Shown here: in pieces, positions 1 to 62,223 of the stretch
How the letters are laid out: every line of letters begins with the position of its first letter
How positions within the stretch are numbered: position 1 is the first letter of the stretch
Assembly (NCBI GenBank): GCA_963722075.1
Contig: CAVRJM010000001.1
Coordinates: 1 to 64,000 of the forward strand
Reading direction: 5' to 3'
DNA: 64,000 nucleotides
From: Candidatus Babeliales bacterium
GTDB lineage: Bacteria > Babelota > Babeliae > Babelales > JANWKD01
Translations under genes and position numbers: made by a program
Notes under the pieces: generated by a model
What the model saw: the letters and a program-made list of their open reading frames with translations, nothing else
The model's database searches: none
Told to the model about the DNA's origin: nothing

Positions 1-2711
1 TTGAGCATGAAAAAATAAGAGTACAGATGTATGCCAATAACTATGTATCATTATCAAAGCAAGATTATCTTCAATTACAACAGAATTACTCAGTTAGTTC
101 TCATGCGCTTGAAGTAGCCGCTCGAATGAATAATAACCAAGAAATTATATCGTTTTTAAATACGTACAATACTAATCAACATGCTTTTGAACAAGCAATT
201 AATCGAACTACCATTGATAAATTAATTCCAGTCTTATATACGTCAAATGGATACCCAAAATTGCAACTAAATACTTATGAAAAGTATCAAGTGGCGCGTA
301 TTATTACTGATTATTATAAAGATGTTTCTCCTGATAACTATTTAAATTTTGTTAAATACAATGCGGCGCAAGGCCATAAGGAATTTAATCAAATACTTAA
401 AGAAGAAACCACCTATGGATCATGGTTAAAACATGAAGCGACTAAATTTTGTGGTTTATTACAAGGTGTTTTTATCGGGACGTCTTTTAATGGCGATATT
501 AATCAATTTAGCAAGGTGATAAAAAATAACGATTTTGTTAATACATTTTATACCGTTGAGCAGTCAATTAAAGAAAATGATTTTACTCAAGCAAAAGCAG
601 TTCTTAATAACTATTTAACTACAAATGATGATAAATTTTTAATATATAAAAAATCATTACAAGATTTGTATACCACTCAGTTAGAAGCACAATGCGCTAC
701 CTTTTTAAAGCGACATGATATTACTCCATCGCCAAAAATAATAGATTTTGTAAAACATATGATTGAATCGCCAAAAACTTTTGAAACGGGTGCCTTATTA
801 TATAAAGAGTTAGCAAATAATCCTACGGATGAGCAATTTGTTAAAACTTTAAAGGCTTTTCTCGATAGAAATGGGATTCCTACATTTTATTCACACAATC
901 GATCATTATTAGATCATATCAAATATTTTAAAACTATTTCTCCTGAACATTTAAATGATCATTTAAAAATTTTAAAGTTACTTTTATTGCCTGAACGAAG
1001 TGGTGTTCAAGCAGGAGTACATTATTTAGCACAAGCATGTGTTGATGGTGAGCCGCTGGCTAAAAGTTATTCCTGTTTAGGAAATTCAATGGTAGCGGCT
1101 TTGGAAGGAAAAACACATGATAAAACAATCTTATCATGTACTGATTTTGCTTTCTTTTATTCAACTCCTGAAGTTTCTACTATTCAGCGACGTATTGTGC
1201 CTTTAGCAGCCAATTTAGTTAATGAAATTGAGCGTTTGAGTGCTTCCGCTGATACTTATGCACAAGCAAATAAATATAAATCAGAATTACTTGCTTTAAG
1301 TAAATTATTTCATCAAGAGAAATTAGGCGATAAAGATCATTATACGCTTCCTGATACCATCGAACGGCTTAATAGAGAATTGCATACTTTTAGCCGACCC
1401 GAAATGCATCGCTCCCCATCAATGGAACAATTATTTTTAGCACACACTGCTGAATATCTGGTTTCGACTAATATTGGCACATTAAGCTTAGATGAATTGA
1501 ATAAATTTTCAGGAACAGCAGAACAAAACGCTATACATACTGATATGATGCATCATATCAAGGTGATGAGTATTAAAGCTGCTACCATTGAAGATACAAA
1601 GCGCGCTGAAATTTTAAAAGTACATAATAAGCTTATTGAATCGGTCTATCAATTAAATAAAGATAGTAGAGTAACGTTGGCAAAAGGCGTGCTTACTGTT
1701 GCCAAAGATGTTGCTTCAATTTTAGTTACCGATTTTCCTTTTGATGAAATTGGAGAATATGCGTATCAAACCATAACTCATCCTATTGATTATATTGCGC
1801 GAACGGGAGAAGGAATTGCCACTGGCGTATGTGGCTTAGCGAAACTTCTTAAAGATAATATCCAGTTATTTCCTAATTCACCTGAACAGCATTTAGAACA
1901 AACCCAACAATATAACACCTTTCTGCATAATTTTTTTGATGGTTGGCAATCATTAGATACACAACAAAAAAAAGAATTTATAGCGCAATTGATGGTCGAT
2001 GGCACCTTAAATAAAGCATTCGGCAAATTACTGAACTTTTTAAATAAAAGTGGCCAATTAGGCGATTTGACTATGCCACTTATCGCTATAGGCGATAGCA
2101 GTTCTGGTATGAGTAGTGGCGCAATCCCACTTGCGCAAGCTGCCGTTTTACTTCATGAAGGAGTTGGTGTTCTTGTACCAGCAACTGCAGTTCCCGTAGC
2201 CGGAATTATTGAAGGGGTGGCAGATATTGGATCGATAATTCATTTATCAACCAATAATGGCGGCAACAATGGCAATAGTGGTAATGTTCCTCCCCCGCCA
2301 CAAGCGTCAGTGCTCGTTGATTTGTATACTGATAGGCTTTCTCAAGAAATTGTGGTGTATGTAGAACCTGGAAAAGGCAATGTTGTTCAGGAATTTACTA
2401 AAGACATTTTATTGAAAAAGGAATTTCATATTTTCTCTCCTAAGCATATAAAGGCAGGTATGGAGAAATTAGGTGATACCCGAGATATCATTGCTGCAAA
2501 AGTGGCTGATCTGATAAAACATGCTGATCTTGCTGAGAAGATTCATATGGGTGATAATACTATGAAAACAGTAATAAATGGTAATAAGGTACTAGTTAGA
2601 ATTATGGTAATAGAGGGCGAGGTAATTAATGTAGATGCTTATCTATGGGATAAAGTTAATGCGGTTTTAAAAGGAAATATATTCGAATTTATTATGGATA
2701 AATATAAATGA
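1..2711 (+). CDS. Large putative polymorphic toxin, 5'-truncated by the window edge; C-terminal Ntox35-like predicted RNase tip
   Basis: The frame is open upstream of ATG 27 to the window start. A long helical N-terminus is followed by a hydrophobic segment, a low-complexity linker (NNGGNNGNSGNVPPPP) and a C-terminal domain with HIFSPKH ... INGNKVLVRIMVIEGEVINVDAY, resembling the H/KH motifs of Ntox35. ATGA overlap with the next gene. Confidence 0.6.
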   Translation, partial: EHEKIRVQMYANNYVSLSKQDYLQLQQNYSVSSHALEVAARMNNNQEIISFLNTYNTNQHAFEQAINRTTIDKLIPVLYTSNGYPKLQLNTYEKYQVARIITDYYKDVSPDNYLNFVKYNAAQGHKEFNQILKEETTYGSWLKHEATKFCGLLQGVFIGTSFNGDINQFSKVIKNNDFVNTFYTVEQSIKENDFTQAKAVLNNYLTTNDDKFLIYKKSLQDLYTTQLEAQCATFLKRHDITPSPKIIDFVKHMIESPKTFETGALLYKELANNPTDEQFVKTLKAFLDRNGIPTFYSHNRSLLDHIKYFKTISPEHLNDHLKILKLLLLPERSGVQAGVHYLAQACVDGEPLAKSYSCLGNSMVAALEGKTHDKTILSCTDFAFFYSTPEVSTIQRRIVPLAANLVNEIERLSASADTYAQANKYKSELLALSKLFHQEKLGDKDHYTLPDTIERLNRELHTFSRPEMHRSPSMEQLFLAHTAEYLVSTNIGTLSLDELNKFSGTAEQNAIHTDMMHHIKVMSIKAATIEDTKRAEILKVHNKLIESVYQLNKDSRVTLAKGVLTVAKDVASILVTDFPFDEIGEYAYQTITHPIDYIARTGEGIATGVCGLAKLLKDNIQLFPNSPEQHLEQTQQYNTFLHNFFDGWQSLDTQQKKEFIAQLMVDGTLNKAFGKLLNFLNKSGQLGDLTMPLIAIGDSSSGMSSGAIPLAQAAVLLHEGVGVLVPATAVPVAGIIEGVADIGSIIHLSTNNGGNNGNSGNVPPPPQASVLVDLYTDRLSQEIVVYVEPGKGNVVQEFTKDILLKKEFHIFSPKHIKAGMEKLGDTRDIIAAKVADLIKHADLAEKIHMGDNTMKTVINGNKVLVRIMVIEGEVINVDAYLWDKVNAVLKGNIFEFIMDKYK

Positions 2712-3418
2712 ATGTCCAAGATTTTTTAAACTCAATTACCTCATTGATTGAAGATATTGAAAGTAAAGAGCACCCCTGGGATTTTATGCCGGCCATACAA
2801 TTATTTCAGCAATTCTTAAAAGATAATCCGGAGAATATTGAGGTTCGAACAAAATACGCGTTGTTTATTTATGATGACGTGCATGATGAAATGGAAGGTA
2901 TCAAACAATTGCATATTATTTTGAAATATGATTGTAATAATATATTTGCTAAATTTTTGCTGGGTTATATTGCTTATTTTTCAATTGGTGTAGTTGATGA
3001 TCTTACTAATGATATAATTTGTGATATGGAAATTAAAGATAATAATAAAGAATTGTTATCAATAAGAGAACTAATAAAATCTTGGTATTATTATTCCGAT
3101 AAAGAAAAAGAAAAAGAGTGTTTGCTAAAATCCATAGAATATTGGGATAAACATGTATGGAATTATAGGCAAGTAGGCCTTTATTATTATTTTAAAAAAG
3201 ATTACAGAAGTGCTTATTATTATTTTGAAAAAGCATTTAGCAATATTCAATTGGTGTATACCAACTATGATAATCGAGAATTGTTTTCCCCTGAATTATT
3301 TATAAATGAACAACTTAAAGGGATATATGTAAGTCATTTTTGCTTTGAAGGGTTACAAAGTTTAATGCAAGAATGCGCCTTGAAAAGTTGTAAGGCGGAT
3401 CCCATGGTTACCAATTAG
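2708..3418 (+). CDS. TPR-like helical protein, putative cognate immunity protein
   Basis: Translationally coupled to the toxin (ATGA). TPR-like segment WNYRQVGLYYYFKKDYRSAYYYFEKA. Duplicated immediately downstream. Confidence 0.6.
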   Translation: MNVQDFLNSITSLIEDIESKEHPWDFMPAIQLFQQFLKDNPENIEVRTKYALFIYDDVHDEMEGIKQLHIILKYDCNNIFAKFLLGYIAYFSIGVVDDLTNDIICDMEIKDNNKELLSIRELIKSWYYYSDKEKEKECLLKSIEYWDKHVWNYRQVGLYYYFKKDYRSAYYYFEKAFSNIQLVYTNYDNRELFSPELFINEQLKGIYVSHFCFEGLQSLMQECALKSCKADPMVTN

Positions 3419-10745: not shown

Positions 10746-10889
10746 ACATACTATATGTATCGTTTTATCAGTTGCAATATTTCAAGCAAAAAAAAATAAT
10801 TTTTTACGAAACTATTTTTTTTCTAAAAATCTTTTTATTATCTTTCTGTGTTGTATCGAATAAATTAATTTTTAAAAAAGGATTAATTA

Positions 10890-12872
10890 ATGAAGCGTTG
10901 TATAAAAATGGCAACCCTTTTAGGATTGCTGGTATATTCGTTAGTGCATGTATCATCCATGCATGCGGATGGCTATGGATGTTCAGCAACAACAATTGAT
11001 ATCAAAAAAGTAATTTCCTCAGTTCTGGTATTATTCCAAAAATATGAGCATCAGGTGGTTGTAGAAGAATTAGAACAGTGCTTGCTGATGCTTGAAAATC
11101 CTCACGATGTTGTTAAAGACGAACTGCTTATCAATAAATTAACGGCGGTGAAAAATAAAATTGAGCAATTGTGTAAAGCACCACGTCCTGATGCGGCGAA
11201 TGTGCCAGCAATTGTAGGGCCATTAGTTGAATGTGATGTTGAATTAGCATTGGGGCTTCTTAATCAAATAATTGGCATTTTAGTTCAATGCTGCAATACG
11301 TTCCAACAAGATTTTATTTTTACTTTTAGCTTTATTAGTGAACTTATTACTACAATAACAGAATGTTGTGATGCAATAGAGAATTCTTTTAATGGAACGT
11401 TTACCGTACTTACTGAAATAAATAATACCTTAACAACTTGTTGCGCGGCAATTGAAAATGAATTTGACAATACGTTCACGTTATTATCTGCTGAGTTTAA
11501 TGGTACTTCCACTGCACTTGCTGATTTAGAATCGACGTTAACCATATGTTGCGATAATATTCAAAGTAATTTTAATGCTACCTTCACTATTATTGCCTCG
11601 CTGAGTACAACGGTTACTTGTCCACCGCCACCTCCTTGTTCACCTACGCCAATCACTGCACCAACCACCATTACCGCTTCAGGTTTTTATTGCTTAGCTA
11701 CTGATATTGCCGGTTCAATTGTGATTACTGCTGATAACGTTACCCTTGATTTAAATGATCATACTATGACCGGTGCTGGCTCGGGTACTGGTATCACCGT
11801 TGGTAGTGGCGTAAATCGCATAGTACGAAATGGTTCCATTATAAATTTTGGTACGGCGATCAATTGCACCGATAATACCGATACCATTATTGAAAATATT
11901 ACCATTATCGATAGTACTACAGAAGGAGTTACGGTAGTTACTAGTACTCTTATTACAATCGATTCGGTTAATGCAAGTGGCGTTTCAGGTATTGGGTTTC
12001 ATTTTACGGGCCCTATCCAAGGAACGATTATCAAAAATTCTACCGTCACCTTAAGTCAGCAAGGGTTTATTTTTAGTAATAATGTTGAATCAGTAATTAT
12101 GGAAAATTGTCACGTCTTGGATTGCAGTTCAGCCATTAACACGCTAAATTTCATAGGCGGTATACTTTTTAGCAACAATTGCTTTGGTATTCAATTAGAT
12201 AATTGTTCAGTTAAAGGATATGTAGGTTTAAATATAATAGTAGCTTTTGCATTTACTGATTCCGAGTTTATTACGGTAAGAAATTGTACGGCTCAAGATA
12301 TTTCAGCCACGGGACCGTCTTCGGAGGTAGGTGGGTTTTCAGTTTTAAGAACAACTGGCGGGCATGATGGTGTAACCCTTATCAATTGCATAGCAAGCAA
12401 CATTACCGGGCCTTTTGTGGTTGCTGGTTTTGAAGCGGATGAGACGGTAATAGTCTATGATGGTTGTACTGCGCAATTTGTTACCGGAGTAATTGAGGGA
12501 GATGGATTCCGTGCAATTGGTGATGCAATCCAATTAACTAATTGCTTTGCGTATGATTGTTCTAATATTGGATTTAATTATTCTGATGTTGATACACGGG
12601 CATCATTTGAATATTGTCAGGCTGCATATAATGATATTGGTTTTTTTATAACATCAACTCAAACTGTAGTTGGAAATTGTGTTGCATTTAGCAATACCGG
12701 CACAGGATTTGACCTTACTGTTTCGGGTAATAGTGATATTTATTTCTGCTTTGCATCTCAAAATGGTTTTGATTATGCGAATGCAGTGAATGTGCAAAAT
12801 GCAAATACACAAATTGATAATGCCGTTGTGGGGTTAACTGGACCGTTTGCTGGTGCGAATCTATTTATGTAA
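10890..12872 (+). CDS. Exported CC-stalk / right-handed beta-helix protein 1
   Basis: Signal peptide, KAPRP...VGPLVEC, four CC pairs, ITASGFYCLATDI...ADNVTLDLNDHT beta-helix cap, C-terminus GLTGPFAGANLFM. Confidence 0.85.
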   Translation: MKRCIKMATLLGLLVYSLVHVSSMHADGYGCSATTIDIKKVISSVLVLFQKYEHQVVVEELEQCLLMLENPHDVVKDELLINKLTAVKNKIEQLCKAPRPDAANVPAIVGPLVECDVELALGLLNQIIGILVQCCNTFQQDFIFTFSFISELITTITECCDAIENSFNGTFTVLTEINNTLTTCCAAIENEFDNTFTLLSAEFNGTSTALADLESTLTICCDNIQSNFNATFTIIASLSTTVTCPPPPPCSPTPITAPTTITASGFYCLATDIAGSIVITADNVTLDLNDHTMTGAGSGTGITVGSGVNRIVRNGSIINFGTAINCTDNTDTIIENITIIDSTTEGVTVVTSTLITIDSVNASGVSGIGFHFTGPIQGTIIKNSTVTLSQQGFIFSNNVESVIMENCHVLDCSSAINTLNFIGGILFSNNCFGIQLDNCSVKGYVGLNIIVAFAFTDSEFITVRNCTAQDISATGPSSEVGGFSVLRTTGGHDGVTLINCIASNITGPFVVAGFEADETVIVYDGCTAQFVTGVIEGDGFRAIGDAIQLTNCFAYDCSNIGFNYSDVDTRASFEYCQAAYNDIGFFITSTQTVVGNCVAFSNTGTGFDLTVSGNSDIYFCFASQNGFDYANAVNVQNANTQIDNAVVGLTGPFAGANLFM

Positions 12873-12887
12873 ATAAAGGAAAAAAGT

Positions 12888-14897
12888 ATGAAGCATTTAT
12901 TAATAAAAATAATGTATATGGTACCACTTATTTGTTTATTGGTACCGCGTATACACGCTAATAATGAACATATGCAAGTTGATCCAATTACGCATGCAAT
13001 AACTATATCACATCTCTTTTTTGATCAAGAAATAGCACATATACTTGATCGCTTGGCTCATGAAGACCCAGGCCAACCCGATATAGCATATTGTAATGAA
13101 GCAATTAAACAGAAAAACGAGTGCATTGATGGACAACGAACGGTTAAAGCACTTATGGCAGTGACAGCGTATTTAGAACAAAATATAAAAGCGCCGCGCC
13201 CTACACCGGAAATTGATGGGAGCATCGTAGGGCCCTTACTTGAATGTGATGTTTTTAGAATCCTTGCATTATTACAGATCTTGGAAAATGCAATTATAAC
13301 ATGCTGTAATCAACTGCAGATTGATTTTAATGGTACATTCACTGAATTAATGGCAATAAGAGATAGTTTTACTACCTGTTGTGCAGCAATTGAACAAGAT
13401 CTTGCAGGTACCTTTACCACGCTTACTGATATTTTTAATACGCTTACGACTTGCTGTGCAACCTCCATAGCATCGGCAACCACGCTTGAAGCAATAATTA
13501 TAAATGATTTTAATGGCACCTTTAGTACCATTGCAGATATAAAAAATACCCTTACGATCTGTTGTAATGCGATTGAAATCAATTTCCAAGGGACGTTTAC
13601 TGCTTTAGCAGCAGCGCAAGTGACGTGTACGTCGGGGGCCTGCAATCCTATTGCCATTAGTGCCAGTACTACTATTACTACATCGGGATTCTACTGCCTT
13701 ACTCAAGATATTATTGGTGCTATTACGATTGCCTCCGATGACGTGCTGCTCGATTTGAATGATCACACCGTAATTGGTGCTGGTGCTGGATCTGGTGCGG
13801 GCATCGCTATTAATTCCGGACTTAATAATATTGCTGTTAAAAACGGAAGAATCGTTGATTGGGATTTCGGTATCACGGGAACAGATCTTACTGCGGCATT
13901 ATTTGAGAATATAGAAACTAATTCCTGTGCCGTTAGCGGCATCAGTATATTGAATGGTTCACAGCTACATTTTAATTTAATAACGGCTAGTGAGATTGGC
14001 ACAATAGGATTACATTTTTCAGGAATATTTGCTGATTGCCAGTTGCAAAATGTAACGGTTAGTCATGCTCAGCAGGGAATAGTGTTTGGGACGCTCAACG
14101 ATGGTTTATTCCAAAATTGTAATGTTTTTGATTGTAGCGTAACAGGAGGGGCAACTATTTCCAACGTAGAAGGAATAGGCATAGCAGCGGGGGGAAGCAA
14201 TATACAATTTGATAATTGTAGCGTTAAAAATTATACAACTAATACCGCTATACAGACAACAGGTATTGGTGTGTTTAATTGTACTAATGTGATTCACAGA
14301 AATTGTGTTGTACAAGCTATTTTTAATGAAGCATCCGTAGGAATAGGTAATGGATTTCTCTGTGATGGGTCTTGTAAAAATGTTCAATATATTAATTGTA
14401 TTGCTACATTAATGACCTCAAATCTGAGTTGTAATGGTTTTAATATAAATGCTCAAGAAGCAACGCTGAGAAATTGTTGTGCAGACCTTATATTACTACT
14501 AGCGTCTTCGGTGTCCGTTGCGGACGGTTTTTTTTGTGGCGGTGGAGATTATGCTTTGATTAATTGTGAAGCATACAGATGTTTCAATACAGGCTTTGAT
14601 TTAACGGGAGGTGGCAATATATTGGCTCAAAATTGTCAAGCCGCTTACAATGATGTTGGTTTTGATATGGGAGCACCTGGGGCAAACAATACGATAGTCA
14701 ATTATAGTGTTGCTTTTAGAAATGACTCAATAGGATTTCAATATGAAGCTCCTACAAGAACATTCCGTTGCTTTGCGACACAAAACGGTATCAATTATAA
14801 TGGGTTTCCACTTAACGTACAGAATGCTAATACCCAAGTTGATACGACAGCGCCTGGATTAACCGGGCCATTTGCTGGCCCAAATCTATTTATTTGA
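12888..14897 (+). CDS. Exported CC-stalk / right-handed beta-helix protein 2
   Basis: Same architecture; C-terminus GLTGPFAGPNLFI; RBS aagga. Confidence 0.85.
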   Translation: MKHLLIKIMYMVPLICLLVPRIHANNEHMQVDPITHAITISHLFFDQEIAHILDRLAHEDPGQPDIAYCNEAIKQKNECIDGQRTVKALMAVTAYLEQNIKAPRPTPEIDGSIVGPLLECDVFRILALLQILENAIITCCNQLQIDFNGTFTELMAIRDSFTTCCAAIEQDLAGTFTTLTDIFNTLTTCCATSIASATTLEAIIINDFNGTFSTIADIKNTLTICCNAIEINFQGTFTALAAAQVTCTSGACNPIAISASTTITTSGFYCLTQDIIGAITIASDDVLLDLNDHTVIGAGAGSGAGIAINSGLNNIAVKNGRIVDWDFGITGTDLTAALFENIETNSCAVSGISILNGSQLHFNLITASEIGTIGLHFSGIFADCQLQNVTVSHAQQGIVFGTLNDGLFQNCNVFDCSVTGGATISNVEGIGIAAGGSNIQFDNCSVKNYTTNTAIQTTGIGVFNCTNVIHRNCVVQAIFNEASVGIGNGFLCDGSCKNVQYINCIATLMTSNLSCNGFNINAQEATLRNCCADLILLLASSVSVADGFFCGGGDYALINCEAYRCFNTGFDLTGGGNILAQNCQAAYNDVGFDMGAPGANNTIVNYSVAFRNDSIGFQYEAPTRTFRCFATQNGINYNGFPLNVQNANTQVDTTAPGLTGPFAGPNLFI

Positions 14898-14916
14898 TAA
14901 TAAAAAAGGGAACAAT

Positions 14917-16866
14917 ATGAAGTATTCAAATTTTATCAGTATGTATATCGTACTAGCACTTTCTATATCATTCATAAGTGCTACTGATAATTTAATACCA
15001 ACCAATGATGATTATATTGCGATATCATTTACTCAAGAAGAAAATGATGTCGATTTAATTAATTTCATGCAAAAATGGTGTACGCTCGATACACAAGTAC
15101 CTACCGGTATGATTGATTGTTGCAAAGCGCTTAGCAACAATGAGCCCATAAAAAAAACTGATGTGCTTTGCACCTTAGCATATATGACGGGTACTTTAAA
15201 AAAACTATTACATGATCCTCAAGAGCCGTTGAATCGGTTATTTGTTGAGTCGATTGAAGCATGTGATTTTACTGATATTATTGGGCTGATTAATCAGCTT
15301 ATTATCTTATTTAATACTTGCTGTGCCCAATTTGAATTTAACGGTACCTTTACCGTACTTACTGATATCTTGAATAGCATAACAACGTGTTGTGCTATAA
15401 TAGAAAACGATTTTACGGGCGTTTTTACGGCGTTAGCTGATTTGAATGGGACGTTAACCAGCTGTTGTGCTGAGATTGCCGTTGATTTCCAAGGAACTTT
15501 AACGGTAGTTCAAACGGGATTTGCGGGTACTTTTACCAGTCTTACCGAGCTTAATGAGACATTAACTACCTGCTGTGCTGAAATTGCTGCTGATTTCCAA
15601 ACTATATTTACTACCATTGCACATCTCACCGCAAATTGTATGGGCAGTTGTTTACCCACACCGATTACTGCTCCGTTTGTTATAACAGCATCGGGATATT
15701 ATTGCTTACAAGCAGATGGGAACGGTCCAATAACTATTAATGCGAGTGATGTAACGCTTGATCTTAATAATCATGCATTAAATGGTGGCGGTTCAAGTAA
15801 TGGTGTAATTATTAATCCCGGCGCTAATAGAGTTGTTAAAAATGGCGCGCTTGTTGATTGTGTTATTGGTGTGTTGGGAAGTACTGTTAATAATACCATA
15901 CTAACTAATCTCTTTATATCAGATTGTACTACTAATGGGATCTTATTTAGCGGTTCAGCAGAAAATATAATCGATTCAGTATTTATTACCGGTATCACGG
16001 GTATTGGCGTACAATTTACGGGTACTAATGATAGCAATTTGATTAAAGCAGTTAATGTATCTCAGTCGCAGCAAGGATTTGTACTTACCGATTTTTCTAA
16101 TGGATTACTTGTTGATTGTCAGGTGTTTAATTGTGTTTCAAATATACCGCCGGCGACCCCTTTTTATGGATATTTGATTACTGCTGGTAACTTTAATGAA
16201 ATAATTAATTGTAGCATTAAAAATTTCATATCCAATCAGTCACGGGGTATTTCGCTTGTTGGTTGTTCAAATGCACTCGTAACGCAATGCACGTTGCAGC
16301 TTATTACTACTAACACGGCAAGTGGATTAGATCTTATTGGATTTGAATATGATAGCGCTTCTACCAATATCGAATGCAACGAATGTTTAGCAACCGATTT
16401 ATTATCTTCAGCATCATGTACCGCGTTTGCCCTTGAAGGAACTACTATAACCCTTAATGGCTGTATTGTTTTAACTTGTTCATCAAGCTCAGGAGAGGGC
16501 AATGGATTTCTTATTACGGGTACCGATGTATCATTAAATGTATGTGAAGCATATTCAAGTAACGCAACCGGTTTTTTAGCAGTTAGCCAAGCGCCTGCGA
16601 TGTTGCAATCATGTTACGCGACCTCTAATGGAAATGGATTTGTAATTGATAATAATGTATTGGTTGGTAATTGTATCTCTGCCATAAATAATAATATAGG
16701 ATTTAGTGCACCGGCTACTGCCATTATATACAAATGTTTTGCCACTAAAAATGGCACCAATTATAGTGGTACCGTGCCCAATGTGCAAAATGCTGATGCA
16801 CAAGTTAACATGGCAAACCCTGGATTAAGTGGACCATTTGCTGGCGGAAACTTATTTAGTTTATAA
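14917..16866 (+). CDS. Exported CC-stalk / right-handed beta-helix protein 3
   Basis: Likely start ATG 14917 (MKYSNF) after aaaggg; same architecture; C-terminus GLSGPFAGGNLFSL. Confidence 0.85.
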   Translation: MKYSNFISMYIVLALSISFISATDNLIPTNDDYIAISFTQEENDVDLINFMQKWCTLDTQVPTGMIDCCKALSNNEPIKKTDVLCTLAYMTGTLKKLLHDPQEPLNRLFVESIEACDFTDIIGLINQLIILFNTCCAQFEFNGTFTVLTDILNSITTCCAIIENDFTGVFTALADLNGTLTSCCAEIAVDFQGTLTVVQTGFAGTFTSLTELNETLTTCCAEIAADFQTIFTTIAHLTANCMGSCLPTPITAPFVITASGYYCLQADGNGPITINASDVTLDLNNHALNGGGSSNGVIINPGANRVVKNGALVDCVIGVLGSTVNNTILTNLFISDCTTNGILFSGSAENIIDSVFITGITGIGVQFTGTNDSNLIKAVNVSQSQQGFVLTDFSNGLLVDCQVFNCVSNIPPATPFYGYLITAGNFNEIINCSIKNFISNQSRGISLVGCSNALVTQCTLQLITTNTASGLDLIGFEYDSASTNIECNECLATDLLSSASCTAFALEGTTITLNGCIVLTCSSSSGEGNGFLITGTDVSLNVCEAYSSNATGFLAVSQAPAMLQSCYATSNGNGFVIDNNVLVGNCISAINNNIGFSAPATAIIYKCFATKNGTNYSGTVPNVQNADAQVNMANPGLSGPFAGGNLFSL

Positions 16867-16887
16867 ATTGTAATAAAGGAGTTTGTA

Positions 16888-18636
16888 ATGAAAAATAGTA
16901 TAGTAAAGCTACTACTACTTATTGGTAGTATATCTATTAATACACTAATAGGTGCTCCTCGATTTGAAATGCGAGCGCCACGTCCTGATGCCCCAATTAT
17001 TGATATTGCCCCGGTAGGGCCTTTAGTCAGTTGTAATGATGAAGAACTAAAAGAATTAATTCAACGACTTGATGCACTAATTGTTTCTTGTTGCGCTCAG
17101 AATGAAGCAGAATTTAATCTTCTTTTTGTTGTCTTGAATGAATTATTGAGTACTTTTACGCTTTGTTGTGCTGAAATTGTATCTGATTTAAATGGAACAT
17201 TTACCTCAATAGCAGAAATTGATACTACCTTAACTGAATGTTGTGCGACAATATTTCAAGATTTTCAAGGCACCTTTAGCGTATTAAATACGGGATTTGC
17301 AAGCACCTTTACTGAAATTGCAGATATTATGGATACATTAACAGCTTGCTGTGACAATTTCCAAATAAATTTTATTGGTACGCTTACGGCACTCGCATCA
17401 ATTGGTGCTAATACTACCTGTACTACCGTATGTGGATCAATTCCTATTATAGCTCCAGTAGTTATTGATGTATCGGGTGTGTATTGTCTTTCTAATGATA
17501 TCATTGGTTCAATTATTATTAATGCCGATAATGTCACCCTTGATTTAAATAACCATACCATTAATGGCCTAGGTGTTGGTGTGGGGGTTCAAGTTAACGC
17601 TGGTTCCAATCGTATGGTAAAAAATGGGCGTATTGTTAATTTTGCAACGGGAATCTTAATTGATGGTAATAGCGATACGCAATTAAATGATATTATTATT
17701 AATGGTTATAGTTCCGCTGGTGTGCAGGCTAATAATAGCGGCACAATATATATTGATTCGCTTCTTATGAACGGGACATTGACGAGCGTTGGCTTAGTTT
17801 GTACCGGTACTAATAATGCATACCTTGTAGAGCGCGTGACGGTTGATGGTGGTACCTCTGGATTTATATTTGCAAATATAGCAGATAGTGTGATTCAAGA
17901 ATGTCAATTTACTAATGGCACTACCGTTGGCTCTGCTGTAGGGTTTGCATTTCAGAGTGGTGGTGCTAATCAATGTAATAACTGTGCAGTAAAAAACCTT
18001 TCTGGTGATGTATCAGCCAATGGGTTTTTTATAGATGATAGTTCTAGTATTATTTTAACAAATTGTATTGTGCAAAATATTATCTCAAGTGCTGGTAATG
18101 CTGATGGATTTATGTGCACTCCGCTTTCTTCTATAATTGATTTTAGGCAATGCTCAGTACTTACAGCAAATGGAGCACTTTCTGCAATGGGGTTTGGATT
18201 TGAAGGAAGGTCAATGACAGCCGTTGAATGCCTTGCTCAATTAGTTAATGGAACTGGATTAAATGGAACCGGCTTTCTGGTTACTGGTAGCGTAACAGCG
18301 TTAAATGAATGTGCTGCTTTTAACTGCTCCGGCACTGGATTTATAATTACTTCATCAGCTACGTTGCTTGAATATTGTGAAAGTGCTTATAATGATACGG
18401 GTTATTCATTTGGTAATGCAAACACGTTAATTGGTAATTCTATTGCGTTTTTTAATAGCACTATTGGATTTGATTTAACGGTGGCGGGAGTTTCCATATA
18501 TCATTGTTTTGCATCCCAAAATGATGCGGGAACTAATTATGTAGGGGCACCCAATGTGCAAAATGCCAATACTCAATATAATCATGCGGCACCAGGCTTA
18601 ACCGGACCGTTTGCAGGTGCTAATCTATTTATATAA
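16888..18636 (+). CDS. Exported CC-stalk / right-handed beta-helix protein 4
   Basis: RBS aaggag; lacks the N-terminal helical domain; RAPRP...VGPLVSC; C-terminus GLTGPFAGANLFI. Confidence 0.85.
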   Translation: MKNSIVKLLLLIGSISINTLIGAPRFEMRAPRPDAPIIDIAPVGPLVSCNDEELKELIQRLDALIVSCCAQNEAEFNLLFVVLNELLSTFTLCCAEIVSDLNGTFTSIAEIDTTLTECCATIFQDFQGTFSVLNTGFASTFTEIADIMDTLTACCDNFQINFIGTLTALASIGANTTCTTVCGSIPIIAPVVIDVSGVYCLSNDIIGSIIINADNVTLDLNNHTINGLGVGVGVQVNAGSNRMVKNGRIVNFATGILIDGNSDTQLNDIIINGYSSAGVQANNSGTIYIDSLLMNGTLTSVGLVCTGTNNAYLVERVTVDGGTSGFIFANIADSVIQECQFTNGTTVGSAVGFAFQSGGANQCNNCAVKNLSGDVSANGFFIDDSSSIILTNCIVQNIISSAGNADGFMCTPLSSIIDFRQCSVLTANGALSAMGFGFEGRSMTAVECLAQLVNGTGLNGTGFLVTGSVTALNECAAFNCSGTGFIITSSATLLEYCESAYNDTGYSFGNANTLIGNSIAFFNSTIGFDLTVAGVSIYHCFASQNDAGTNYVGAPNVQNANTQYNHAAPGLTGPFAGANLFI

Positions 18637-18653: not shown

Positions 18654-19184
18654 ATGGTTTTTTTTAAAAGAGCTACAGTTTTTTCCTTTTGGTGCATCAT
18701 TTTAACGAGTAAGGGAATGGATAGGTTTATAAAAGAAAATGATATAAGCAAAATGAAATCTTTATTAAAAAGAACACACAGCCCTCAAGAACTTAAAGAA
18801 TATGTTGATGCAAGGCATAATAATTTAATTCATGTTATTGTTGGAAACTTTATTGAACGTGCCAAGCAAAGTGATACCGAGGAAAAATTAGCTGATTTTA
18901 ATAAATTAAAAAATAGTTATACCGAATTATTGACCTATCTTACCCAAGAAATTGGTATTAATATCAATGAATGTAATGATGATTTGAAAACACCGTTATA
19001 TTTGATCCAAGAATGTATTGATAAAAATGAAGTTTTGAAACAAAATTTAGCGCCGCTAGAACGTTGTTTATTAGATTTGGGTGCCCTTTCTTTTACCTAC
19101 TCATATGCACCAGTGATTCGCAATGCTAAAAAGCTTTTTTGGGAAATTATGTGTTGTGGCTGTATGAAAAAGAAAAAAATATGA
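18654..19184 (+). CDS. Ankyrin-like exported protein with Cys/Lys-rich C-terminal tail
   Basis: NNLIHVIV, GININECNDDLKTPL and LLDLGA are ankyrin-like; ends CCGCMKKKKI. Confidence 0.7.
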   Translation: MVFFKRATVFSFWCIILTSKGMDRFIKENDISKMKSLLKRTHSPQELKEYVDARHNNLIHVIVGNFIERAKQSDTEEKLADFNKLKNSYTELLTYLTQEIGININECNDDLKTPLYLIQECIDKNEVLKQNLAPLERCLLDLGALSFTYSYAPVIRNAKKLFWEIMCCGCMKKKKI

Positions 19185-19756
19185 TTTTCTTTCTCTTTTT
19201 TTTCTACTTTTTTACCGGTTCAGCAATGCAGCAAGAATCACTGAGCGAAATAATTGCTAAAAATCCTCAGCACGCATTAGAACAATTAAAACAATATAGG
19301 CTTTCCCGAGTTAAAGAATATCGCGATAAGAATTTTAATAACTTAATTCATATAACGGTTAATGCATTAATTAAACAAATCGTTGATGGCAAGAAAGCTA
19401 ATAAAAAAAAAGATTCTGCTCAATTAATATTAGATTATAAACCGTTATTAGAATACTTAGTTACTCAGGTTGGTATTAATATTAATGAGCTTAATGATAA
19501 TTATTCTTCACCTTTGATTTTAGTATACAGAATGTATGCTTGTCCTGATGAATCATCTCTAACTTCAGAATCATTTAGACTATTTGTTGTTAATAATGAT
19601 TTAGCAAACCAATTAAAACCATTAGAACAGTATTTAATAAATTTAGGGGCAGATAATAATACATGGTTTTTTGATTGGGGCCCTGAGATTCGAAATGTTA
19701 AAAAATTGTGCTGGAAACTTTTGTGCTGTGAGTGCATGAAGAAGAAACATAATTAA
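19181..19756 (+). CDS. Ankyrin-like exported protein, paralogue of 18654..19184
   Basis: Likely ATGA-coupled start at 19181. NNLIHITV, GININELNDNYSSPL and LINLGA; ends CCECMKKKHN. Confidence 0.7.
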   Translation: MIFFLFFFYFFTGSAMQQESLSEIIAKNPQHALEQLKQYRLSRVKEYRDKNFNNLIHITVNALIKQIVDGKKANKKKDSAQLILDYKPLLEYLVTQVGININELNDNYSSPLILVYRMYACPDESSLTSESFRLFVVNNDLANQLKPLEQYLINLGADNNTWFFDWGPEIRNVKKLCWKLLCCECMKKKHN

Positions 19757-21071: not shown

Positions 21072-21983
21072 TTATCCCTGATTCATAGAATCATTTAGTG
21101 ATTGAACAGTAACTAAATCATTTTTGTTTTGGTTGTTTAAATGTTCCATCTCAATTAATATTCTTTCCAATTGATTTAATTGAGTGACGGTTTCTAGATT
21201 TTTTTCTTTTAAAGAATCAGTTTTTGCATTAAGTTCGTCAATGCTCTTTTTAATAGTAGCTGAATGATTCGATAAATTAGTTACTTCCTTAATGCTCTGT
21301 TCTAATTGTTCAGTAAATTCTTGATCCTGCGTTTGGACTGTTTTAGAAAACTGCTGTAATGCCTCTTCTGATTGTTCCTGGTACCTTTGTAGTTCTAATA
21401 ATGTTTCTGTAATTGGCGTATTATTATATTCATGTTTTATTTTATGAATTAATGCTAATACATGACTATTATTGCGATCAGAAGAATGGAAAAAAGCGGT
21501 GTGTTGTTTTTGCATTTTGTTTGCTATTAATCCCGTTTGCGCTAATGAACTAGTAAGAAAAGGAAGTTGACGAGTAGTAATAGGTAACATAGTGGTTTTT
21601 TCATTCACGATTGCTTGAGCAAGCTCTTGAAGTTCTCCCATTTCGTTACGTGATTTTTGAGCTAAAAGATCTTTAATTGTTCGTTTTGCTTCATCTAAAT
21701 CTTTTTTAGTAGTGTAATCAGTAAGATATTTAAATAGTGCAAGAGAGCCTACAACGCCCCCTGCCAGGAGTATACAATTAATCATAGTTTTATGTTGTGC
21801 ATAAAAAGATTTTTCTTCTATGGTATATCCGCCTTGTTTAAATGAAGCAACTAAAGCAGGAAGCAGTTCTTTAGCAATAGTAGAATTTATATGATTGTTA
21901 TCGCGCAACAAGGAAGTAGAATGGTGCATACCAAGAGAAAGAAATGGATGCATAATAAAAATAATTAACAATTTTTTTAACAT
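21072..21983 (-). CDS. Exported coiled-coil protein D (signal peptide, TM, TKKDL)
   Basis: Signal-like N-terminus, hydrophobic segment, then a long Q/E/L/K heptad region. Confidence 0.75.
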   Translation of the reverse strand: MLKKLLIIFIMHPFLSLGMHHSTSLLRDNNHINSTIAKELLPALVASFKQGGYTIEEKSFYAQHKTMINCILLAGGVVGSLALFKYLTDYTTKKDLDEAKRTIKDLLAQKSRNEMGELQELAQAIVNEKTTMLPITTRQLPFLTSSLAQTGLIANKMQKQHTAFFHSSDRNNSHVLALIHKIKHEYNNTPITETLLELQRYQEQSEEALQQFSKTVQTQDQEFTEQLEQSIKEVTNLSNHSATIKKSIDELNAKTDSLKEKNLETVTQLNQLERILIEMEHLNNQNKNDLVTVQSLNDSMNQG

Positions 21984-21985
21984 TA

Positions 21986-22927
21986 TTAGTCCCTTAATAA
22001 CGAAGTTGAAGATTTTATTTTTTTTGAAAAAGTATCAAATTCTTGTCTTACCTTATTTTGCTCTTCGAGCTCTTGTACTTTAGAATGAAGTTGCATACAG
22101 GTTTGTTTTAATTGGTTATAACCGCCTAGAATGCGGGGAAGCAAGGAATTTTTTTCACGTTCTTCCTTAAGTTGTCTGTCTAAATTAAGACATCGTAGCG
22201 TTAAAGAATGTATAATTGTTAGTTCAGTATCTTTGGCTTCATGAAGTTTATCTAATTGTGCATGAGCGTCCTGGGTTGATTTTTCAATTTGTTCCTGTTC
22301 TTTTGTAACATCATTTACTATCGCAGTAGTAAATGCCACTATTTCGTTATAATCTTGTAAATTGTCACTAACATTTTTTTCTATTTGGCGTATTTTATTT
22401 TGATGTAAGGTGCAATAGAGTGAAAAATTATAGGCGGCAGTACTAAAAATCTTTTTTTGATTAGTAATTAATTTTTGCAATTGTAAAATGTTTCCCATTA
22501 TGAATTTATTTTGTTGCTTTAAACACTGTTGTTGTTTTAATTGTCTATTGTTCAATCCTCTCATAAAACGGCCCATCTGGTCGGTTGTATTAGTGGTATG
22601 GATTAACTTTAATTTTATTTGATCTAAAATATCAGTATTTTCTTTTAATTGGGAAAATATAAAACTGATCTGTAAAGTCGTGTCATTGCTTTGCTCATTG
22701 ATCATATCCACAAATTCATTCATCGCATTTAGAAAGTCTGTTCTAGTGATAGGTATAATATTATTTGAAAACCAATTACATCCTATAGAAAATGAATATA
22801 TGAATGGTTTTGAGGCATAATAACCAGCAGTTGTAACACCACTTTTTACTAATCCAAAATAGCCGCCATATGCATTATTAAGGAAAAAAATCGAGAAGAA
22901 AATAACCATTTTTTTTAAGAAATTCAC
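21986..22927 (-). CDS. Exported coiled-coil protein C (PITRTDF)
   Basis: Signal-like N-terminus and long predicted coiled coil. Confidence 0.75.
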   Translation of the reverse strand: MNFLKKMVIFFSIFFLNNAYGGYFGLVKSGVTTAGYYASKPFIYSFSIGCNWFSNNIIPITRTDFLNAMNEFVDMINEQSNDTTLQISFIFSQLKENTDILDQIKLKLIHTTNTTDQMGRFMRGLNNRQLKQQQCLKQQNKFIMGNILQLQKLITNQKKIFSTAAYNFSLYCTLHQNKIRQIEKNVSDNLQDYNEIVAFTTAIVNDVTKEQEQIEKSTQDAHAQLDKLHEAKDTELTIIHSLTLRCLNLDRQLKEEREKNSLLPRILGGYNQLKQTCMQLHSKVQELEEQNKVRQEFDTFSKKIKSSTSLLRD

Positions 22928-22950
22928 GCAAGTATTCCTTTTATCGGTAA

Positions 22951-23856
22951 TTAAATAATGCCTAATTCTTTTTCTTGTTGCATTATATAATTAGTAAATT
23001 CTAGGTATGTTTCCTCATTATACAAATTAATTTCTAATTGATCCATATCACGTAATAAATCAGTAATAGTGCGCGTATTTTGATTATGTTGATTACAAAT
23101 GCGTGCAAATTCTTTGGCAAAGGTGGAGAATTGCTGTTCTAAATGATTATTATTTTCTGTACAAAATAGAGCTGATTGTTCCTGCAATGAGATAGAAAAA
23201 CTATCTAAAAATCTTCTAATACGGGCAGTGATTTCTGATTCTAAAATTTTAAGCTTTTTTAATTGTTCTTTATATGATTGTTGATGCGTATGAGTAATAG
23301 AATAAATACAATGTTCTATTTCCACAAGCAAACTTCGTTGTACGCGTGTTGCGGTAGCAAAATATTCAGTATGTTCGCTTGAAGAAAGTTGTGCCGAATC
23401 AGTTAAAGCGTTCATTACCAAATGAGGGAATTGATTAATATGTTCTTTGATGATAGTAATTTTAGTATTGAGCTTAGTTAATTCTTTATTTGATGCTTCA
23501 ATCGCTCTTTTAGATTCATCAATTTTGTGTTGCGTATGGGTATTTGCATTTTTTTTGAAAGCACTGATTTCTTGATGGAATCTTTTTTTTGCTTCGTCAT
23601 TAATACGTTTGAGGTCTTTTGCCGTTAGAGGCCAATAAGGGCTCATCCTTAACAATAATAACATAATAGTCATAAGGGAGCTTCCTATACATAATTTTGG
23701 ATAAGAAGTACATAAGGTGATAAGAGTAGTAGGAATTGTTCTTAAAGATGCGCACGAGAAAAAAGAAGGTGATGGGGCAGGCGTAAGCGTAGTATCCATC
23801 CCATAAAGGGGAAATAATGTTAGACAATAAAATAAAAAGAAATACTTTTTTGGCAT
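22951..23856 (-). CDS. Exported coiled-coil protein B (PLTAKDL)
   Basis: Likely start ATG 23856 (MPKKYFFL); TM followed by coiled coil. Confidence 0.75.
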   Translation of the reverse strand: MPKKYFFLFYCLTLFPLYGMDTTLTPAPSPSFFSCASLRTIPTTLITLCTSYPKLCIGSSLMTIMLLLLRMSPYWPLTAKDLKRINDEAKKRFHQEISAFKKNANTHTQHKIDESKRAIEASNKELTKLNTKITIIKEHINQFPHLVMNALTDSAQLSSSEHTEYFATATRVQRSLLVEIEHCIYSITHTHQQSYKEQLKKLKILESEITARIRRFLDSFSISLQEQSALFCTENNNHLEQQFSTFAKEFARICNQHNQNTRTITDLLRDMDQLEINLYNEETYLEFTNYIMQQEKELGII

Positions 23857-23860
23857 AGGC

Positions 23861-24706
23861 TTATGGGCTTTTATTTTTTTTAAGAGTATCTTGAATCCTT
23901 TTCCAGCGATCAAATAAAGCAACAGCATTTTCTATTTTATGGCGATTATGATTTTTTATATCTTGTATTTTACTTTGCACCAGTTCAATAGCGTCTGTTT
24001 GCAGGGTAATGGATTGTTTTGTTTGTTCAATCTCATGCGAAATTTTTTGACCATGTTCCTGCGCATCATCGGTGCATTTTTTTAGTACCATTTCATACTG
24101 TTGTTTGACAAGCTCGAGCAGCTGATCAGTACATCTTTTATTTTCAGTTTCTAATGTATGCAATTCATTATGCAGCATACGTAATCGATCAAGTGCATTT
24201 GTTTGTTCCAGCGCTAATCGTTCTTTAATAGTATCTAACGTTATTCGTAATTCTTTTTGTATTCGGAGCGTGTGCAATTGCAGTTTTTTATTAAGTAATT
24301 GATTAAAAGTAATATGATGTTGATATATACCATGTGCAGCTTCTTTTTTGGCTTCTATAAGATCAGTTACCAATTCTTCTAATTGCATTACATTTTTTTC
24401 AATACTAGCCCTTACTCTGCCTTCTAATTCTTGTTTAGTAGTAAAAAATAATCGATCAATTTGTTCGAAGGTGCTTTTTTGCATTTCTTGGCATTGTGTT
24501 TGGATTAAATTATTAATTTCATTACGTGTTTTTAGAAGATCTTGTTGGGTTGCTGGCATAAAAAAATGTGTTATAAAACTTAGATACTGAAAGGTGCCCA
24601 CTATAAACGGCAATAATAAGGGCTTAAAAAATGATATATATTCTAACGAGCCATAAAGATGAGTGGGAAACGGTAATAAGAAAAGAAGAGCTGCGGTTCG
24701 CTTCAT
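23861..24706 (-). CDS. Exported coiled-coil protein A (PATQQDL)
   Basis: Signal-like N-terminus, TM and long coiled coil. Confidence 0.75.
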   Translation of the reverse strand: MKRTAALLFLLPFPTHLYGSLEYISFFKPLLLPFIVGTFQYLSFITHFFMPATQQDLLKTRNEINNLIQTQCQEMQKSTFEQIDRLFFTTKQELEGRVRASIEKNVMQLEELVTDLIEAKKEAAHGIYQHHITFNQLLNKKLQLHTLRIQKELRITLDTIKERLALEQTNALDRLRMLHNELHTLETENKRCTDQLLELVKQQYEMVLKKCTDDAQEHGQKISHEIEQTKQSITLQTDAIELVQSKIQDIKNHNRHKIENAVALFDRWKRIQDTLKKNKSP

Positions 24707-35356: not shown

Positions 35357-35474
35357 TGGATCCCCATCCGTCTACGTTAAAACTACGCCGGACAGGCACG
35401 CTATTGACGGAATCCGGCGAAGCCTTCGGCGAAGTCGGACGCGCTCGGGATGACGGTAGTGTACACCACCGTCA
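35357..35474. repeat. Composite nested REP-like element plus terminal hairpin at the atpE stop
   Basis: tggatcccca...aactacgccggacaggc...gacggaatccggcgaagcc...ggcgaagtcggacgcgctcgggatgac is shared with about 9957-10035; tgacggt...accgtca hairpin. Confidence 0.85.
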
Positions 35475-36440
35475 CTTTAAAATTATAATAAGCAGTGCAA
35501 TAAGTAAAGCGTACATTGCTGCAGCATCTATAATTCCTTGTCCTAAAATACTGGTACGGGAAAGTATAGAATGTTGCTCAGGATGTACGGCAATTTCACG
35601 ACAGGCAGCACCTGCAATAAGACCGGAGCTTATGCCAGGGCCTAAAGTACCCAGTGCTCCGCAGATAGCCGCTGCTAGACAAGAAACGGCACCAAAAAAT
35701 TCATTAGGTGCTTTAATTGGTGTTAATAAGAGTACGATTGAAATAAGGACCGCAAATATAATAGGCGTTTCAATAATTGCTTGGCTGATAAAGGTAAACG
35801 GCATAATGATTTTATAAGCATCTTTATTATACGCAATACTTTCTTGACAAATACGGGCAAAACGCGCGAGTCCAAAGGTGGGTCCTATAGCGCCAAAACC
35901 AATACAAATACCACTGGCAAGTAACCTAATACCATTAGCAAGAGTAGTAACTGATCCTAATTGAGCTTTAATAAAAAGCGCTATTAAAAAACTAAAAATT
36001 ACCGGTGTTTGCACTATTGATTGGGTTATGAGTAAGGCATTTAAAATTTTAGTAGCAAAAAAAGGTTGCCGTGCAAGTGCAAAGGCTGCTTGTTGAGCGG
36101 GCAACGATGATAAAATGCCAACCAGAGCTCCGGAAATGCCCAATGCAAGAGCGATTCCCCATTCTCCAATTGCTACATAGAGTTGCTGTTCTGGTTGTAC
36201 GATTGTTGGCCCCAGTATAAGAAACAGTGCCATGACGATACCTAAAATAGCACTTGTTTCAACTAATGCCAGGCTTATGATAAGTGCTCTAAAAATAGAA
36301 GGGTAACTGAGTGGGGCAATATTAAGTGCACGTACCGCTTGCATACTGGCGTTACCGCCGCCAATACCAATCCCAAGCGAAGTGAGTCCAACAATAAAAG
36401 CAATACTACTATAATGCAATAATGGGTGTAAATCGATCAT
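35472..36440 (-). CDS. atpE: F0 ATP synthase subunit c, four fused hairpins (8 TM)
   Basis: Follows atpB. Four Gly-rich hairpin repeats with loops NIAP, ARQP, AYNK and AVHP and key residues E, Q, E, D. Confidence 0.88.
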   Translation of the reverse strand: MIDLHPLLHYSSIAFIVGLTSLGIGIGGGNASMQAVRALNIAPLSYPSIFRALIISLALVETSAILGIVMALFLILGPTIVQPEQQLYVAIGEWGIALALGISGALVGILSSLPAQQAAFALARQPFFATKILNALLITQSIVQTPVIFSFLIALFIKAQLGSVTTLANGIRLLASGICIGFGAIGPTFGLARFARICQESIAYNKDAYKIIMPFTFISQAIIETPIIFAVLISIVLLLTPIKAPNEFFGAVSCLAAAICGALGTLGPGISSGLIAGAACREIAVHPEQHSILSRTSILGQGIIDAAAMYALLIALLIIILK

Positions 36441-62198: not shown

Positions 62199-62223
62199 TA
62201 ATTGATATGTTAAAAGGAGCAAT

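Follow-up and report, generated by a model that had tools for sequence, protein, structure and literature searches.

The first 64,000 nucleotides of contig CAVRJM010000001.1 from a Candidatus Babeliales bacterium (GCA_963722075.1), referred to here as the window, contain an array of four genes encoding cysteine-rich proteins composed of a stalk and a beta-helix. We denote this genome G000 and further genomes of the phylum (Babelota, also termed Dependentiae or TM6) by other G numbers. Six records match a 27-base segment of the G000 16S gene; five are named TM6 or Babeliales and the sixth is labeled uncultured Pseudomonadota. As an initial sequence-only reading had proposed, the four genes are tandem, co-directional paralogs on the + strand. 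Gene 1 (10890-12872) encodes a 660-amino-acid (aa) protein with a signal-like start, a three-helix N-terminal domain (N-domain; aa 33-95), the motif KAPR (aa 96-99), a cap cysteine (Cys115), a stalk bearing four pairs of adjacent cysteines (CC) and a beta-helix head. Gene 2 (12888-14897, +; 669 aa) has the same layout, with KAPR at residue 101. Gene 3 (14917-16866, +), encoding 649 aa when read from its ATG, retains the N-domain and has HDPQE where the RxxR motif is expected; a TTG at 14872 was given by the open reading frame (ORF) finder as an alternative start. Gene 4 (16888-18636, +; 582 aa) lacks the N-domain and carries RAPR at residue 29, directly behind the signal. Genes 2-4 show 33-41% identity to gene 1, and intergenic gaps of 15, 19 and 21 bp each hold a purine-rich, Shine-Dalgarno-like run.

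The predicted signal peptides were upheld on all four proteins, as judged solely by a crude charge/hydrophobicity rule. Three features went beyond the initial reading, namely the N-domain of genes 1-3, [RK]APR in genes 1, 2 and 4, and the cap cysteine, which lies 19 residues ahead of the first CC in 4 of 4 array proteins. In gene 1 the N-domain (10986-11189, +) ends in KAPRP; it is supported by a 33-row alignment and was modeled with a predicted local distance difference test score (pLDDT) of 85. In genes 1-3 it is predicted to comprise three helices over ~65-68 aa with one invariant cysteine. All eight N-domain matches in G000 fall inside stalk genes, and [RK]APR occurs within the first 300 aa of only six long G000 ORFs, corresponding to five stalk proteins and one 3738-aa fiber. 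The N-domain may act as a pro- or chaperone segment. It gave no telling Pfam match, and neither Pfam nor NCBIfam holds a family for it; a fold search was no more telling, its best match (Z 8.5) being a common helical arrangement. Beyond the stalk, a short Cys/Pro neck leads into the beta-helix, and the array proteins share a conserved C-terminal tail ending in GPFAGxNLF. The general layout of the family is a signal, an optional N-domain, an [RK]APR linker, a stalk of 7/11-residue units and an exchangeable head or none.

The initial reading assigned exactly four CC pairs to each stalk, spaced 25, 25 and 36 aa (23, 25 and 36 in gene 3). This held for the stalks, where pairs lie at residues 134/159/184/220 (gene 1), 139/164/189/225 (gene 2), 135/158/183/219 (gene 3) and 68/93/118/154 (gene 4), but two proteins carry a fifth CC elsewhere, at residue 530 in the head of gene 2 and at residue 68 in the N-domain of gene 3. 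Cysteine makes up 4.1-4.9% of the four proteins, versus a median of 1.14% over 652 long G000 ORFs. Twenty G000 ORFs of at least 200 aa have at least two CC pairs and nine have at least four; because all nine belong to the family described below, CC-rich stalks are not attributable to chance.

Several lines of evidence supported the earlier proposal that the stalk follows a heptad/hendecad coiled-coil period. Hydrophobic residues in stalks 1-4 recur with periods of 3.575, 3.57, 3.625 and 3.60, significant against shuffled sequences in three of four cases (p 0.001, 0.17, 0.004 and 0.003, respectively). The gene 4 stalk (aa 50-174; 17035-17409, +), an amphipathic helix of period 3.60 predicted to form a parallel coiled coil, would extend ~19 nm at 1.5 Å per residue. 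Across the family, 495 of 563 CC spacings of 5-60 aa are sums of 7 and 11, as are 116 of 143 when spacings are counted once per genome or protein, both against a background of 54%. The best period of these spacings is 3.595 (p 0.0003 versus uniform draws), and one genome has a CC every 11 residues. A profile of 436 CC sites displayed hydrophobic positions at -10, -7, -3, +4, +8, +12, +14/15 and +18, which places the CC at g-a of the local heptad once a stutter in every 25 residues is allowed for, in the register L(d)-x-x-C(g)-C(a)-x-x-I(d)-x-x-x-F(a). The pair straddles the hydrophobic face, with the first cysteine at -31 to -92 degrees and 11 of 16 window pairs within -30 to -70 degrees. Given units of 7 and 11 residues and a period near 3.6, the resulting bundle is expected to be almost straight.

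A homo-oligomer model of the stalk agreed with this arrangement. Three copies of gene 4 (aa 40-365) were modeled as a parallel coiled coil with a score of 0.55 (best of three controls, 0.00), and runs shared at least 72% of contacts with a pLDDT of at least 78. The confident interface spans stalk aa 49-173 and includes all four CC pairs, the contacts 119-118' and 94-93' being among the tightest; no head residue was among the confident contacts, about half of the head being included. Among proteins with solved structures, 20 of 30 that pair two copies of one chain attain the mark applied to this score, as does 1 of 23 single-chain proteins; the mark is only a rough guide for three copies with an alignment of our own, the three copies of gene 4 being the one set modeled. 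Together with the angles described above, these contacts support the proposal that CC pairs face neighboring chains. A trimer passes in this model but is only one of the allowed states, as three to six chains fit in the geometry given below, and a core with Thr at d and hydrophobic side chains at a, e and g would also suit a tetramer or larger bundle. We therefore predict that at least three chains join in a parallel coiled coil with CC pairs at the interface.

In ideal symmetric bundles with assumed radii, ring disulfides between neighboring chains fit for three to six chains when the first cysteine lies about -30 to -70 degrees off axis. The closest C-beta distance for adjacent CC was 3.1-4.6 Å in most three- to six-chain bundles, 5.2 Å in the loosest trimer and at least 5.1 Å in dimers, and an i,i+1 disulfide inside an intact helix was out of reach (S-S 3.5 Å at closest). 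An alternative that keeps the bundle and alters its chemistry or chain number, through metal binding at the cysteine layers or a dimeric stalk, appears very unlikely. Six thiols per layer would, as in designed three-stranded coiled coils, suit soft metals, and some CC stalks occur in genomes without the disulfide-forming enzyme VKOR; however, the array proteins appear to be exported, in a cell that has VKOR. For a dimer there is the precedent of the extracellular domain of PLVAP (PMC10083539), a long parallel coiled coil that forms a disulfide-linked dimer through several interchain bonds with cysteine spacings of 11, 25, 21 and 25. PLVAP is eukaryotic and uses single symmetric cysteines rather than CC rings, and the dimer distance given above argues against the same solution here.

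The closest parallel to a bundle closed by cysteine rings is engineered. In the respiratory syncytial virus (RSV) F trimer, introduced adjacent cysteines at g-a form interchain rings (PMC4476739). In both systems the cysteine pairs occupy g-a positions of a parallel coiled coil, recur at intervals down its helices and face neighboring helices. The Babelota stalks differ in being natural and bacterial, with up to 41 pairs and rings 11-100 residues apart in a 7/11 coil, whereas those of RSV F recur every heptad; and rings are closed in RSV F, whereas in Babelota geometry supports them. The stalk is thus likely a natural version of the RSV F cysteine zipper, with disulfides predicted from geometry.

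Other affinities of the stalk were considered. No family for it exists in Pfam or NCBIfam, and the Atlas search returned no usable stalk match. Baculo_PEP_C matched 23 of 29 stalk rows (17 bits versus a cut-off of 38 in an example row) and coronavirus HR1 matched with E values down to 1e-4; we take both as likeness of helical period only. Stalks are rich in D/E-x-N-x-S/T (315 seen versus 43 expected). N-glycosylation was rejected as a reason, with STT3 in 0 of 31 genomes while a control was found in four archaea, and secreted proteins having no genome-wide N-x-S/T excess (1139 seen, 1130 expected). We read this richness as a by-product of the DFNGT consensus.

The C-terminal right-handed beta-helix claimed at the outset was borne out by Pfam, modeling and fold comparison. 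Pfam Beta_helix matches three of four array proteins, two above the curated cut-off, and the gene 4 head (aa 185-545; 17440-18522, +) was modeled as a right-handed parallel beta-helix with pLDDT mostly above 90 and a conserved cysteine about every 27 residues in its C-terminal half. Fold search recovered tailspikes, adhesins, depolymerases, lyases and epimerases at 7-17% identity, including phi29 gp12 (Z 35.8, root-mean-square deviation 4.1, 357 aligned). Best matches in a viral library were giant-virus beta-helix proteins of Barrevirus, Hyperionvirus and Klosneuvirus (E 3e-11 to 2e-8), and an Atlas search with gene 1 gave only generic beta-helix clusters at 0.88. These matches invite the view of a stalked depolymerase, in which the beta-helix cuts host coat or cyst polysaccharide in the fashion of a phage tailspike. 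We regard this as distinctly unlikely, given the low identity to the matched enzymes and an alignment of 18 heads in which, beyond the N-cap, D, E, K, R and H are nowhere fully conserved (D/E reaches at most 12 and 13 of 18 in its best columns), although paralogs could differ in active site. The heads also have only 7-10 Lys/Arg in ~390 aa. The head more likely binds surface glycans of a protist host.

The initial likening of the head to trimeric adhesins and tailspikes stood as to fold matches and is qualified as to assembly, the beta-helix being modeled as single-chain and the half or so of the head in the three-copy model adding no confident contacts. Like phage tailspikes, which share the right-handed beta-helix, the Klosneuvirinae beta-helix proteins differ from the Babelota genes, which are signal-bearing, chromosomal and not set among phage genes. 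Phage records yielded no match to the gene 4 stalk, and none of 26 candidates from scanning viral contigs for the head motif was confirmed. Trimeric autotransporter adhesins such as YadA and SadA likewise combine a modular coiled-coil stalk with a head, and the stalk profile weakly matched an adhesin fragment, 2wpr (E 0.26). In the Babelota proteins, however, the head is C-terminal to a Cys-rich stalk, and the YadA anchor (PF03895) matched neither the four proteins nor G000, with a positive control in Escherichia coli; the C-terminal head and missing anchor rule out this class. The Babelota proteins would work like these adhesins and like the MAT fibers of Bdellovibrio (PMC10769870), a bacterium that invades cells and secretes paralogous fibers. 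MAT fibers share a conserved N-terminal module, differ in length and can exchange their C-terminal tips. The Babelota family is mosaic in the same way, one stalk repeat being joined to three head types or to none. MATs differ in having a ~130-aa beta-rich domain behind the signal, where Babelota proteins have the three-helix N-domain (absent in gene 4), and in their intertwined trimeric beta-helices, as opposed to an alpha-helical CC stalk with a single-chain beta-helix. An S74 chaperone is reported in 13 of 21 Bdellovibrio MATs, and the four array proteins had no S74 Pfam match. N-domain fold, single-chain beta-helix and lack of S74 rule out a MAT fiber.

The array is one subfamily of a modular Babelota family, and the 25/25/36 spacing is a subfamily trait. 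A stalk-profile search across the phylum, proposed with the initial reading, matched 26 of 261 genomes in 7 of 21 families. A further profile search, the one that bears on range outside Babelota, hit 69 proteins, and all nine with an organism name are from Babeliales or Dependentiae. Anatomy was read from a subset of matches, comprising 40 regions and the loci of five further genomes. Members vary in length from ~210 to 2800 aa and in CC number from 0 to 41, some being headless, single-Cys or Cys-poor; one stalk repeat carries a beta-helix, a beta-helix plus WD40, a 'WEERF'-type head or no head. Since stalk length and head type are shuffled between paralogs, the family presents a repertoire of reaches and specificities. 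Conservation of the CC register, as initially proposed, thus applies within the 25/25/36 subfamily but not family-wide, where CC number and spacing vary, mostly by steps of 7 and 11. Although variable register had been listed as grounds for rejecting the model, this variation keeps the coiled-coil phase and therefore does not refute it.

G000 has nine family genes, four in the array and five elsewhere. Outside the window, one long gene (G000:C1:67687-72249, -) is split over three frames inside its repeats, reflecting either assembly error or true breakage, and the others lie on C1 at 73.2-76.3 kb and 79.7-84.2 kb, with two at 1.22-1.23 Mb. Each listed ORF of these five holds 7-21 CC pairs, and their heads are of other types. 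The same four-gene array occurs in a different neighborhood in G001, a genome of the same genus, and in G003 and G004 headless members likewise stand in arrays of four. Some genes encode a 'WEERF'-type head alone and adjoin stalk genes with the same head (G000:C1:64994-66358 and 78421-79734; L026 7235-8494); the one tested had no Pfam family. A metagenome scan confirmed none of 274 candidates. A genome-collection scan confirmed 3 of 96, and by motif count these three lack a CC stalk. The initial statement that the architecture matches no described family agreed with our searches of Pfam, NCBIfam and the literature, in which no description was found, including term searches in passages of PMC4776705, PMC6561590 and PMC4378268.

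Stalk span is matched among related genes, including array members that are only ~45% identical. All 13 multi-CC members with the array's head subfamily keep 84-88 aa between first and last CC; eight come from two arrays and five from metagenomes. Their stalks are ~37-51% identical where compared, and loss of an inner CC does not alter the span. A solitary relative in G001 has one CC. In the headless quartets the span is 115 in 4 of 4 G003 genes and 89-90 in 4 of 4 G004 genes, all four G004 genes being 25-26 aa shorter than all four G003 genes at 30-40% identity. Concerted length change is not proven by this difference, because approximately unbiased (AU) tests are compatible with duplications that took place separately in the two genomes (p 0.30, 0.41). 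Matched spans nonetheless hint at hetero-oligomers of array chains, a lead from sequence that we hold as tentative and rather doubtful. Weighing against it, other neighbors have unmatched spans (248/316 in the G000 pair at 1.22 Mb; 516/455; 564 versus 516 and 518), and metagenome genes were paired as neighbors solely by contigs of equal length. The fuller proposal of one hetero-oligomeric fiber, with four chains of selected equal stalk length, cysteine-zipper rings, RxxR maturation and four beta-helix heads, is possible, if doubtful. If true, such a fiber would be a combinatorial, redox-locked, Babelota-specific class of adhesin that host reducing conditions could unlock.

A putative oxidative-folding route for the stalks is present in G000, which encodes VKOR with its CxxC. 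VKOR occurs in 76 of 261 phylum genomes, comprising 16 of 26 with and 60 of 235 without a stalk match (odds ratio 4.7 by hand count, kin not being independent), and stalks poor in CC occur in two genomes that lack VKOR. Also encoded in G000 are two DsbD proteins and thioredoxins with signal-like starts. One genus includes two genomes with VKOR ~4 kb from CC-stalk genes on the same strand (L028 2968-3333; G004:C6:89551-89910), an arrangement not seen in G000. Chlamydia, by comparison, uses DsbA/DsbB (PMC6752827), whereas Babelota have VKOR instead; DsbB exceeded the cut-off in 1 of 261 genomes and G000 has none.

The chlamydial envelope had been invoked as an analogy in the initial reading, and it stands loosely: OmcA and OmcB are also Cys-rich exported proteins, within a phylum of obligate intracellular bacteria. 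Identity with OmcB was rejected, as Chlam_OMP6 (PF03504) had no match in the four array proteins. The analogy bears on the possibility of envelope armor, in which the proteins, heads included, have a structural role and cross-link into a periplasmic or surface mesh to stiffen the cell on release. Cysteine at about four times the genome median, headless arrays in G003 and G004 and a Cys ladder in the head itself all point that way, as do accounts of degenerate TM6 envelopes (PMC4776705) and of distinct mature particles released by Babela (PMC4378268). We nevertheless consider armor unlikely. Stalk cysteines face the bundle core and would be spent within one fiber rather than between fibers, an OmcB family match is lacking, the stalk was found in only 26 of the 261 genomes, and head exchange suits recognition better than scaffolding.

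Candidate export components in G000 include two secretins and one Omp85 gene. The window also contains a gene for a secreted-type protein of 1471 aa without a Pfam match (57735-62150, +), followed by a Cys-bearing, barrel-like gene (62206-64000, +). In G001, G259 and G206 a giant-protein gene and a barrel-like gene precede a short stalk-only gene, and in G258 the barrel and stalk part was seen. The short CC-stalk gene of these four genomes ends in a WLKxIY helix; by our reading, ATPase-like remnants occupy its place in G000. PMC4378268 describes Cys-rich barrel proteins distinct from the stalk family.

An anchor is not visible in the array proteins, which would fit factors that are shed into the host vacuole, cut at RxxR by host proteases, and act there or mask the cell rather than mediate attachment. 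The minimal convertase site is R-x-x-R, which [RK]APR, with its narrow distribution in G000, resembles. We deem shedding highly improbable. Long rigid stalks are hard to explain in a soluble factor, cleavage at [RK]APR is itself surmised from sequence, and G000 has its own S8 peptidase.

Collectively, these data lead us to propose, as the most likely reading and with moderate confidence, that the array encodes a predicted disulfide-riveted modular surface fiber for host recognition. Subunits with signal-like starts would be exported by Sec. The N-domain likely acts early and, judging by conservation, may be cut off at [RK]APR. Stalks of the observed period are predicted to zip in register into an almost straight bundle, and periplasmic oxidation, likely via VKOR and exported thioredoxin-fold proteins, would close Cys2-to-Cys1' rings. 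We propose that the locked fiber leaves via a secretin or a dedicated barrel, both encoded in the genome, and presents a beta-helix head that likely grips a protist host cell. All laboratory isolates of Babelota infect protists (PMC12172432), and a protist host is inferred by analogy for the source organism.

Several observations weigh against this proposal. The 38 pooled distinct CC spacings are unphased (p 0.84), and the weighted tests count related repeats; 5 of 16 window CC pairs lie outside the best angle window; and the stalk in the monomer model of gene 4 has a pLDDT of 40-60. Resemblance to trimeric coiled coils of known structure may account for the score of the three-copy model. The link between VKOR and stalk is loose and drawn from kin that are not independent: CC stalks persist in G259, G258 and G206, which lack VKOR, G120 combines VKOR with mostly single-Cys stalks, and 60 VKOR genomes lack a stalk. 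G000 has no DsbA-type PF13462 match, no anchor domain is evident in the array proteins, and gene 3 has no RxxR motif. Finally, the genes are known here through sequence and models.

Surroundings of the array and other parts of the window were also surveyed. An AT-rich upstream region of 144 bp (10746-10889, +) is common to the array and a divergent VTT/DedA-type gene. It has one weak sigma-70-like site (10772-10800) at chance level (41 sites found versus 42 expected), and promoter and terminator scans were at or near chance. Two small paralogous genes with Cys-bearing basic C-termini and no Pfam match begin 17 bp past gene 4 (18654-19756, +) and were not seen next to the G001 array. Farther along, four tandem genes (21072-24706, -) encode charged, helical-looking proteins of 280-325 aa with N-terminal hydrophobic segments and no Pfam match above cut-off. 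An 894-aa protein (27-2711, +) has a C-terminal Ntox35 match just above cut-off and overlaps a 236-aa gene (2708-3418, +), possibly forming a polymorphic toxin and immunity pair. An ATP synthase subunit c gene of 322 aa (35472-36440, -), adjoining subunit a, has four c-subunit repeats with E, Q, E and D by eye at the carboxylate position of the four hairpins, an unusual fused c-ring subunit.

The present analysis adds the range of the family, a three-copy model of the stalk, a test of bundle geometry, the module formed by N-domain and RxxR, the link to VKOR and the lead from matched stalk lengths. The parts of the Babelota genome papers searched name no such surface apparatus for host recognition or entry, and the family supplies concrete, expressible candidates for recognition of protists. 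It also offers substrates for the patchy VKOR pathway of the phylum. If the predicted bonds form, the stalks would constitute a natural repeating cysteine zipper, a principle we found in print only as vaccine engineering, and would lend themselves directly to building covalent coiled coils whose length can be tuned.

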